This document shows positions 21,085 to 47,305 of a stretch of DNA of 57,317 nucleotides, piece by piece. The notes below the pieces were generated by a model, which made no database searches, had not been told where the DNA came from, and saw only the letters and a program-made list of their open reading frames with translations. Both the position numbers and the translations under genes were made by a program. The stretch covers positions 1-57,317 of the forward strand of contig MHRF01000007.1 of assembly GCA_001820875.1 (NCBI GenBank). Reading direction: 5' to 3'. Within the stretch, counting starts at the first letter, position 1. Each line of letters opens with the position of its first letter. This DNA comes from Candidatus Taylorbacteria bacterium RIFCSPHIGHO2_01_FULL_46_22b. GTDB taxonomy: Bacteria; Patescibacteriota; Minisyncoccia; Phycocordibacterales; DSPV01.

Positions 21085-21708
21085 ATGCAAGTTTTTGATC
21101 TCGTCTTTTCTATAGCTATTCTCGTTATGTCTGTAGTGGTGCACGAAGTGTCGCATGGCTATGCCGCGAGTTTGCTTGGCGATCAGACCGCTCGATACCA
21201 AGGACGGCTCACGCTCAACCCTCTTAAACATCTCGATCCCGTAGGTTCCATTATCGTGCCGATTCTAACGTCGCTGGGTGGTTTTGTATTTGGCTGGGCG
21301 AAGCCCGTTCCATTCAATCCATATAATCTCCGAAGTCAGCGTTGGGGAGAATTAATTGTTGCTATTGTTGGTCCAATATCAAATTTAGTCCTTGCGATTA
21401 TATTCGGTATCCTCATTCGATTAGTGCTCGCCTATCATTTCCTCCCGCTTTCTTTTGTACAAATTGCTGCAACCGTAGTTGCTATTAATCTGGTACTTGC
21501 AGTATTCAATCTTGTCCCGATTCCACCTCTTGATGGTTCAAAGGTTTTATTTGGTCTCCTACCTGTCCACTTGCAGTATATTCGAACGTTTCTTGAGCAA
21601 TACTCATTGATACTGATTATTATCTTTATCTTCTTTCTCTGGAAGCTATTTTTGCCTCTCGTCTCTCTTTTGTTCGGTCTTTTGACCGGATTGCCTCTGG
21701 GGCTGTAG
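21085..21708 (+). CDS. Site-2 protease (M50) family membrane metalloprotease
   Basis: HEVSHG, RLTLNPLKHLD, GWAKPVP, FNLVPIPPLDGS. Confidence 0.95.
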   Translation: MQVFDLVFSIAILVMSVVVHEVSHGYAASLLGDQTARYQGRLTLNPLKHLDPVGSIIVPILTSLGGFVFGWAKPVPFNPYNLRSQRWGELIVAIVGPISNLVLAIIFGILIRLVLAYHFLPLSFVQIAATVVAINLVLAVFNLVPIPPLDGSKVLFGLLPVHLQYIRTFLEQYSLILIIIFIFFLWKLFLPLVSLLFGLLTGLPLGL

Positions 21709-21984
21709 GTCGAACCACAGGAGTATCCCTAAAGGGACTTCCCATTTTGTAAACAAAATGTAGGTCGCACCACAAGGGCACTTCCGATTTCTAATCGCTT
21801 CGCTTAAGAAATCTAGGTCGCACCACAAGAGTACTTCCCATTTTGTAAACAAAATGTAGGTCGCTTGCACCCGCCGCCTTCTGGTGCTGGGCACTGCGTT
21901 CGCCTTCGCTCATACCACAAGGGCACTTCCGATTTCATAGTCGCTTAGTCTACGACTACAGGTCGCTCTTTGAAATCTAGGTCG
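21706..21984. repeat. Cluster of four modular repeats ACCACAAG-RGYACTTCC-[hairpin]-TAGGTCG
   Basis: Units 21714-21767, 21769-21820, 21822-21863, 21914-21984. Confidence 0.92.
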
Positions 21985-22049
21985 CTTGCTTTTTTGAACC
22001 GTTCGTATTACAGTAGCTGTCACCTGCCAGAGCAGGTATTTTCATTACG

Positions 22050-46711: not shown

Positions 46712-46722
46712 TATGGGTATTT

Positions 46723-46760
46723 CAACAAAACACCGTCCTTACCGGACGGTGTTTTGTTTT
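46723..46760 (+). terminator. Terminator after ndk
   Basis: AACAAAACACCGTCC/GGACGGTGTTTTGTT. Confidence 0.85.
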
Positions 46761-46832
46761 ACACAAAGGTATCTTTCGTGTCGGAGTACAAAAAGGCGTA
46801 TTGTTTTGTCGAGGGAGAGGGTTATACTTATT

Positions 46833-46984
46833 GCAGGGTTATTTGGAGTATAAACTCTATAACAAAAATCAGGGAGTCCAATAATCATCGTAACTCGTAG
46901 AGTCGCTTCGGCAGTTCTCTTGCTTACGATTTAGGACACCCACCTAGCTTTTCGCTAGGGTAAATACTCTCAAGTGACCCTGAA
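46833..46984 (+). ncRNA. ssrS: Probable 6S RNA
   Basis: Rod fold with closing stem CAGGGUUAUUUG-GAGUAU/AUACUC-UCAAGUGACCCUG, A-rich central bubble, 3' bubble hairpin, UUCG apex; TATACT upstream, terminator 46986-47014. Confidence 0.75.
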
Positions 46985-47071
46985 CAAGAATTCTCCGTAC
47001 CGTGGAGAATTTTTGTTTTTCTCATTATTTAGAATGGAAATAAAGGGTATTACACCCTTTGTTACCGTCGC

Positions 47072-47221
47072 ACCACAAGAGTACTTCCGATTTCTACACT
47101 TGCTACGCTTGTGAGAAATCTAGGTCGCTCGTTCGGGAGAAAAAAAGAGGATACTTTTTCTCTCCACACCACAAGAGTGCTCCCAATTTCATAGTCGCTG
47201 TGCTTCTTGAAATTTAGGTCG
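47072..47221. repeat. Two more copies of the ACCACAAG...[hairpin]...TAGGTCG repeat
   Basis: Units 47072-47127 and 47168-47221 separated by an unrelated hairpin. Confidence 0.92.
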
Positions 47222-47305
47222 CTCACTCGCTAGGAAATAACAAAGCGGTCGCGTTATTAAATCAATGGCGGGTTAGATATGCAAAGGATATAATGAAACA
47301 ACCAT

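Follow-up and report, generated by a model that had tools for sequence, protein, structure and literature searches.

A 57,317-nt stretch of DNA from Candidatus Taylorbacteria bacterium RIFCSPHIGHO2_01_FULL_46_22b (hereafter the window; positions 1-57317 of contig C7, MHRF01000007.1, in the 13-contig genome G000 with 921,489 bases and about 45% G+C) contains a short structured repeat, the units of which are dispersed over the intergenic regions of this genome. The units are best understood, with a probability of roughly 55%, as a non-autonomous repeat resembling the repetitive extragenic palindromes (REPs) and bacterial interspersed mosaic elements (BIMEs), the hairpin of which would be recognised in its single-stranded form and which would be gained or lost precisely next to the sequence YCGC. 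Each unit is a discrete DNA piece of 43-74 nt and is composed of a fixed left arm of 17 nt (ACCACAAG-RGYR-CTYCC), an AT-rich stem of 7 bp that varies in sequence but is paired, a loop, and a fixed right arm (T-W-GGTCGC). The loops belong to a few conserved classes, e.g., TAGTCGCT..CTCCT after stems that end with A, and A-A-N-TCGCT..GCTC-R-TA after stems that end with CT.

A covariance model of the unit was trained on 46 units and used to scan G000 at a cut-off of E <= 1e-3. The scan yielded 21 matches, including the weak match C1:99887-99947 (25.9 bits), which was left out of the count. Two further units, unit 1 of the window and C13:62582-62639, were identified by eye and added to the remaining 20 matches, resulting in 22 units at 13 intergenic loci. 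The first-pass annotation of the window had described six copies at two loci, which is correct for the window, but not for the whole genome. The units of the window matched the model with E values from 1e-12 to 3e-16. A search of the window with the left-arm pattern alone gave five matches, four of them exact, while 1.77 were expected at up to two mismatches. All 13 loci lie between long open reading frames (ORFs) of a crude greedy map, which contained 971 ORFs and a coding fraction of about 90%. Several loci are spanned by short ORFs (<120 aa), which are probably spurious and made by the repeat itself. All copies in G000 are direct or solitary.

To characterize the variability of the stem, 99 model matches from G000, its relatives and public contigs were aligned, which gave 86 distinct rows. 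The stem positions were paired in 91.7% of the cells, compared to 70.4% in shuffled alignments; the alignment had been fitted to the model's own structure, which favours such pairing figures. Two-sided changes were observed at all seven stem pairs, and the covariation score was 0.496 versus 0.175 after shuffling, a value that was reached by none of 500 shuffles, which as controls ignore the phylogenetic tree. When the partners were slid by one column, the pairing went down to 71-74%. Some of the cells counted as unpaired are due to a subfamily that is one column out of register. The number of stem variants was determined with 65 well-registered distinct units (21 rows with gaps or at least two non-pairs were left out), and 27 different stems were found. 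These results support selection for pairing in the hairpin, as had been proposed from the six copies in the window.

Pairing beyond the 7-bp stem was less clear-cut. The arms could form the additional helices ACC/GGU and AAG/CUU of a three-way junction, but changes at five of the six extra pairs affect only one partner (A-U to G-U, C-G to U-G), and at the sixth pair both partners change in just one cell. A competing extension of the stem, ACUU/AGGU, fits as well as the junction helices and also varies almost only one-sidedly, to wobble pairs, and minimum-energy folds switch between the two alternatives. The asymmetry between G-T and A-C mismatches, an indicator of the folded strand, amounted to 4 versus 2 cells, which are too few to name that strand.

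Filled and empty sites of the same unit occur within G000. The second locus of the window is a composite repeat with the order stop-codon-flush hairpin, unit B, linker hairpin, unit C, and tail. Five paralogous composites exist, and unit B is present in three of them and precisely absent from the other two (the copies in C1 and C10). The composites without unit B read ...CTTTGTTCGCATCGC|TCGTTCGG..., the filled composites read ...CTTTGTTACCGTCGC-unit-TCGTTCGG..., and the flanks are homologous on both sides. The flanks of the empty sites thus have the form ...TCGC | TCGTTCGG.... Empty sites were also present in relatives. The spacers between the M50-protease gene and rpsL, which harbour units in G000, are short and free of units in G002, G003 and G004, which belong to the same genus. 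Directly 5' of rpsL the sequence, including a hairpin at 22022-22037, is conserved; in G000 it is located 3' of the unit block. G005 and G001 have other DNA between the two genes. In these data insertion cannot be told from precise deletion.

The positions of the unit borders point to a short target. The base directly before ACCACA is a C in 70 of 82 flanked units, the next base upstream is a G in 54 of the 82, and the two positions further upstream are mostly pyrimidines. Units are also found inside other units: in G017 the loop of one unit contains a second, complete unit (L018), and units interrupt the 3' stem of other units in L193, L094 and L200. The proposed target rule YCGC is derived from these counts of flanking bases and from a small number of filled/empty and nested cases. 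The loops contain TCGC and the 3' end of the unit is GTCGC, and therefore every copy would recreate the target. In addition, six of 83 units are flanked by a private, perfect inverted repeat (7 nt or longer) and lie at its tip, compared to 9 of 1655 control positions, and one of these six sits in a terminator-like hairpin. In two public contigs (L055:1312-1369 and L068:5678-5733) the unit makes up the entire loop of a perfect flanking hairpin of 13-17 bp, and the flanking hairpin of L068 resembles a two-way terminator between convergent genes.

Based on these observations the following mechanism can be proposed. The unit would be processed in the form of a folded single strand, which is most likely DNA. 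Its insertion, or precise removal, would take place directly 3' of YCGC/YGC, a short target sequence. Recreation of the target by the 3' end GTCGC and by the TCGCT of the loops would then lead to head-to-tail arrays with the exact joint GTCGC|ACCACAAG and to nested units. Furthermore, units join other small hairpin modules to form mosaic composites, which are themselves copied. Dispersal, covariation, filled and empty sites, nesting and the patchy distribution were observed, while a single-stranded intermediate, the YCGC target rule and active transposition are parts of the model.

The distribution of the units is patchy. Model matches were present in 10 of 41 related genomes (G000 to G040, which share kinship and are not independent), with 0-21 copies each: 21 in G000, 11 in G001, 1 in G004, 20 in G015, 7 in G017, 3 in G018, 1 in G032, 16 in G035, 5 in G039 and 1 in G040. 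Even within the genus the copy numbers were 21, 11, 1, 0, 0 and 0, so that three of the five other genomes were devoid of units. The strict 17-mer of the left arm was found in 3 of the 41 genomes, and a reversed-pattern control gave no match. Another 150 genomes, sampled evenly across the phylum, contained no match at E <= 1e-4; in this run G000 gave 19 matches. The arms are near-identical across different families of the order. Public species genomes contained full units in at least 25 loci among the 80 loci listed. Among the matches listed, all records with full units were titled as Patescibacteria groups or unclassified bacteria, and those from other phyla matched the 17-mer only. In the preferred reading, the units are a gene-less repeat of one order of Patescibacteria. 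Several unit-bearing contigs are titled 'Candidatus Saccharibacteria'. Many third-party assemblies titled 'uncultured Candidatus Saccharibacteria' also hold the closest relatives of the M50 protease, beside Zambryskibacteria records; such titles are probably unreliable at the class level and were therefore not relied on for class assignment.

In all four environmental DNA runs the summed contig depth over the units was far above that of the flanks (e.g., 5466 versus 17.6 in run X3), and, therefore, many other contigs carry look-alike units. The contigs of the source organism break at units in these runs.

The search for similar structures in Rfam 15 gave no match at the gathering threshold in the window, and only chance-level matches were seen at E <= 10 for both loci. 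The 12 other loci gave matches to tRNA and tmRNA only. The absence of an Rfam entry, the empty sites, the nested copies and the patchy copy number agree with the suggestion of the first-pass annotation that a REP-type interspersed element is present. Some units adjoin tmRNA or tRNA genes. The tmRNA gene at C7:61349-61742, outside the window, encodes the tag peptide AKNAVARVSPYFGAKDFAFVYA, and about 255 nt further downstream a unit is present on that strand, too.

The comparison with known repeats revealed similarities to several groups. Like the REPs, BIMEs and REPINs of Proteobacteria, which are mobilised by RAYT transposases (TnpA_REP, HUH Y1), the units are short extragenic hairpins with tens of copies and a patchy spread; they have a conserved single-stranded tag beside the hairpin and form mosaics with small modules as in BIMEs, and inverted doublets reminiscent of REPINs are present in one relative, G015. 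These doublets (C1:98929-99078 and C1:115449-115598; L209 and L210) are arranged tail-to-tail about 37 nt apart, have similar flanks, and by analogy resemble REPINs. The conserved portion of REPs is their stem, whereas the units have a variable AT-rich stem and fixed flanking arms and loop. In contrast to REPINs, the units in G000 are direct and head-to-tail, and not inverted pairs. Moreover, a cognate RAYT for the units was not found; the Y1 genes carry other ends and do not co-occur with the units.

Insertion sequences of the IS200/IS605 type and their gene-less derivatives, the palindrome-associated transposable elements (PATEs), insert as single strands 3' of a short target by a 'peel and paste' mechanism. 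The units share with them a strand-specific hairpin, the lack of terminal inverted repeats or a clear target duplication, the seamless presence or absence next to a short specific sequence, on the 3' side of which they are apparently inserted, and arms of about 17 nt (5') and 8 nt (3') at the foot of the hairpin. However, the units have one hairpin and not separate hairpins at the left and right ends, they are unlike the ends of the two IS200-like copies of G000, TnpB was not found, and unit orientations are mixed at short range in G015. The BOX elements of Streptococcus pneumoniae, ERIC/IRU, the Correia elements and the Rickettsia palindromic elements are modular, gene-less and structured. 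They are similar to the units in being gene-less structured modules with a variable number of internal modules and no known dedicated transposase, but no sequence relation was found, and the units are smaller, follow a defined joint rule and nest mutually.

Several other candidates were rejected. A miniature inverted-repeat transposable element (MITE) of a DDE transposon does not fit, because complementarity of the termini is limited to the imperfect GCACC/GGTCGC, the outer bases of which vary without compensation; in addition, the GTCGC at filled sites is unmatched upstream in most copies, and no rve domain was found (the DDE search was confined to this family). A PATE of a resident IS200/IS605 element was discarded, as the hexamer ACTTCC is all that the ends of the two cassettes have in common with the units. 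An array of a type III toxin-antitoxin system (ToxI-like) is at odds with the location of the arrays, which precede rpsL or unrelated genes, and with the solitary nature of most units. Finally, the genes enclosed by inverted units in G015 were inspected, and they are ordinary, e.g., one for a MiaA-like protein. Taken together, the family lacks the defining features of REP/RAYT systems, PATEs and MITEs, yet works like them, and as far as found it has not been described before; no account of such repeats in Patescibacteria was found in the literature listings and matched passages.

The HUH transposase encoded elsewhere, which had been suggested for the handling of the units, did not find support. 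G000 contains two ORFs with a Y1_Tnp domain (C13:10277-10954 and C12:11297-11986), which scored 66.3 and 28.7 bits with the RAYT model NF047646 (cut-off 80). Each of the two genes is bracketed by its own inverted hairpin repeats of 25-26 nt, which are unlike the units, and these ends are not dispersed: three exact copies lie around the C12 gene, and the arm core of the C13 gene occurs at its own site and as one near-copy about 3 kb away, but nowhere else. The corresponding IS200-like cassettes span C12:11262-12017 (L002, 1244-1999) and C13:10234-10980 (L001, 1428-2174) and have ORFs of 225-229 aa; the C13 cassette lies between two paralogous ORFs that start with an RHS-core-like motif. G000 also contains three RVT_1 ORFs of 358-411 aa (C4:63122-63751, C7:125884-126567 and C1:69419-70030), none of which adjoins a unit.

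The lack of a linked enzyme is the first of several results that weigh against a mobile single-stranded element. No enzyme was linked to units in G000, and TnpB, rve and IS110 were not found in this genome. Y1_Tnp was present in 7 of 10 repeat-bearing and in 19 of 31 repeat-free genomes and thus does not track with the units, and G015, which is 100% complete, has 20 units and no Y1 match. The same was true for RVT_1, which was present in 6 of the 10 repeat-bearing and 9 of the 31 repeat-free genomes, and absent from G035 with its 16 units. Single units are not unusually stable (z of +0.34 to -1.5 versus shuffles). The four contig-level DNA runs revealed no gain or loss of units among near-identical strains; a lone 60-nt skip was seen in one contig only, with a side of 30 nt. 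The copies of the composite are only about 91% identical, and by sequence the composites show no sign of very recent bursts. Furthermore, the comparisons of filled and empty sites are equally explained by deletion between two GTCGC direct repeats. Lastly, at all six G000 loci that lie between genes of the same direction the units are co-oriented with these genes, as a role at the RNA level predicts.

Such a role would mean that the units are functional RNA modules, e.g., protein-binding, processing or stabilising elements in untranslated parts of mRNAs, the DNA copies of which spread secondarily. Selection would then act on the fold of the RNA and on the conserved arms and loops. We regard this as rather unlikely. 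The strong covariation of the stem, the conserved single-stranded arms and the conserved loop classes would be in agreement with it, as would the six co-oriented loci, the frequent start of units a few bases from a stop codon, and the conservation of the arms across families whose spacers can otherwise not be aligned. However, synteny is not conserved, close relatives have zero copies, and in other genomes 12 of the 20 units between same-direction genes are antisense. The remaining eight are co-oriented; these counts are based on crude ORF calls, and four rows of the window were subtracted from 12 co-oriented ones. The units are also truncated, nested and variable in number, they have no Rfam match, and at locus 2 a terminator-like hairpin (17 bp, with a T-run) precedes the composite. 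A special case of a role in RNA would be that the block at 21.7 kb acts on the rpsL operon, either as a cis-regulatory leader or as a processing module, the latter of which had been considered before. This is extremely improbable: the block is located directly upstream of rpsL and is co-oriented, but rpsL follows straight after the M50 gene in G002, G003 and G004 with zero units, the conserved leader with the hairpin at 22022-22037 is downstream of the block, and the same units are found at 12 unrelated loci. The first-pass idea of an RNA module upstream of rpsL was therefore abandoned in view of 13 unrelated loci and three unit-free spacers in the same genus that retain the leader.

It is unlikely, too, that the units are an old, immobile repeat which is reshaped by slippage, recombination at GTCGC/TCGC and gene conversion, and the stem of which is kept by palindrome correction at the DNA level and not by function. 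A neutral sequence of 57 nt should not retain near-identical arms across families in which the M50 orthologues are at most 66% identical and the spacers cannot be aligned. The 27 stem variants are all paired, which needs more than occasional correction, and the copy number varies from 0 to 21 within one genus. Nevertheless, the identity of about 91% between composites and the absence of a linked transposase would be expected for a remnant; stuttered partial arrays, e.g., in L200, resemble slippage products, and flanking GTCGC repeats can yield the exact loss of a unit. The REP/BIME-like repeat with a hairpin recognised as a single strand remains the preferred explanation. As a tentative extension, which we consider possible but doubtful, the units could represent a new class of single-strand mobile elements reduced to the minimum, in which one hairpin and two fixed arms serve as both ends, which insert 3' of YCGC and thereby build their own next target, and which are moved by an enzyme outside the recognisable transposases of the genome, either a host-encoded or a so far unannotated protein of this order of Patescibacteria.

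The six units predicted in the window, with their stems and loop lengths of 4, 14, 4, 33, 18 and 16 nt, were all present, and all features of both loci are on the forward strand. At locus 1 the block is immediately 5' of rpsL and has the same orientation. It begins with a lone right-arm heptamer TAGGTCG at 21706-21712, the TAG of which terminates the M50-protease ORF (21085-21708), as had been noted before together with the three head-to-tail units that follow. The orthologue in G005 ends with ...LPLG* (GGG TAG), while the G000 protein ends with ...LPLGL* (GGG CTG TAG GTCG). Unit 1 (21713-21768) has the stem CATTTTG/CAAAATG, the loop TAAA and the right arm TAGGTCGC. As described in the first-pass annotation, its left arm contains an extra mini-hairpin of 12 nt, TCCC-TAAA-GGGA, at 21726-21737; the same insert was also found in C5:54768, C13:153271 and C13:62582. 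Unit 2 (21769-21821) has the stem GATTTCT/AGAAATC and a 14-nt loop, AATCGCTTCGCTTA, and scored 67.6 bits with the model. Unit 3 (21822-21864) again has the stem CATTTTG/CAAAATG and the 4-nt loop TAAA, and scored 58.1 bits. Units 1-3 are arranged head-to-tail, and their joints are at GTCGC|ACCACAAG.

Units 3 and 4 are separated by a spacer module of 49 nt (21865-21913), which is itself repeated: a paralogue with 84% identity (blastn) is present at C5:5678-5727, and further matches were found in G001 at C40:5191-5222 and C67:10745-10777. Unit 4 (21914-21985) has the stem GATTTCA/TGAAATC and a loop of 33 nt, in which a mini-unit composed of the hairpin TAGTC-TAC-GACTA and CAGGTCGC is nested (about 21945-21966). 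The same mini-unit was also seen in the loop of the unit at C13:172377. The folding stability of the complete 301-nt block had a z value of -2.2. A few bases 5' of the rpsL start codon, at 22022-22046, the hairpin ACCTGC-CAGA-GCAGGT is followed by a T-rich run, and a similar hairpin is present at the equivalent position upstream of rpsL in G004; it may be a leader structure of the S12 operon. A promoter scan of both loci gave zero sites by the criteria of the tool. The sequence TTGCTT-17-TACAGT is a candidate rpsL promoter, the sole basis being its conservation in G004. No tRNA was found in the window.

The composite at locus 2 lies downstream of the terminator-like hairpin mentioned above (46982-47018). 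It starts with the 5' module AAATAAAGGGTATTACACCCTTTGTTACCGTCGC at 47040-47071, which includes a hairpin at 47042-47060. Next is unit 5, which is of type B (47072-47128) and has the stem GATTTCT/AGAAATC and a loop of 18 nt. The linker hairpin module TCGTTCGGGAGAAAAAAAGAGGATACTTTTTCTCTCCAC (47129-47167) is common to the five composites and also occurs alone at C4:30487-30519. It is followed by unit 6, which is of type C (47168-47222) and has the stem AATTTCA/TGAAATT and the 16-nt loop TAGTCGCTGTGCTTCT, and by the tail TCACTCGCTAG-NN-AATAA at 47223-47245. The paralogues at C13:80639-80831 and C13:131625-131827 are 91-92% identical (blastn). Upstream of the composite, the region 46712-47020 comprises about 300 nt without an ORF of at least 60 aa, has hairpins, and carries the 17-bp terminator-like stem at its end. 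It had no above-threshold Rfam match and possibly represents a leader or a small RNA.

The ultra-small genomes of Patescibacteria are about 90% coding according to the crude ORF map, and, therefore, non-coding DNA that is kept in tens of copies should be either useful or actively spreading. The family offers a testable case, with exact boundaries, the simple joint GTCGC|ACCACAAG, filled and empty sites in one genome, and no obvious transposase. Metagenome assemblies break at the units, which also give rise to spurious short ORFs, so that a model of the unit aids both assembly and annotation. Identification of the factor that copies the units could uncover a novel activity for mobilisation, or a host function based on a sequence-tagged hairpin.

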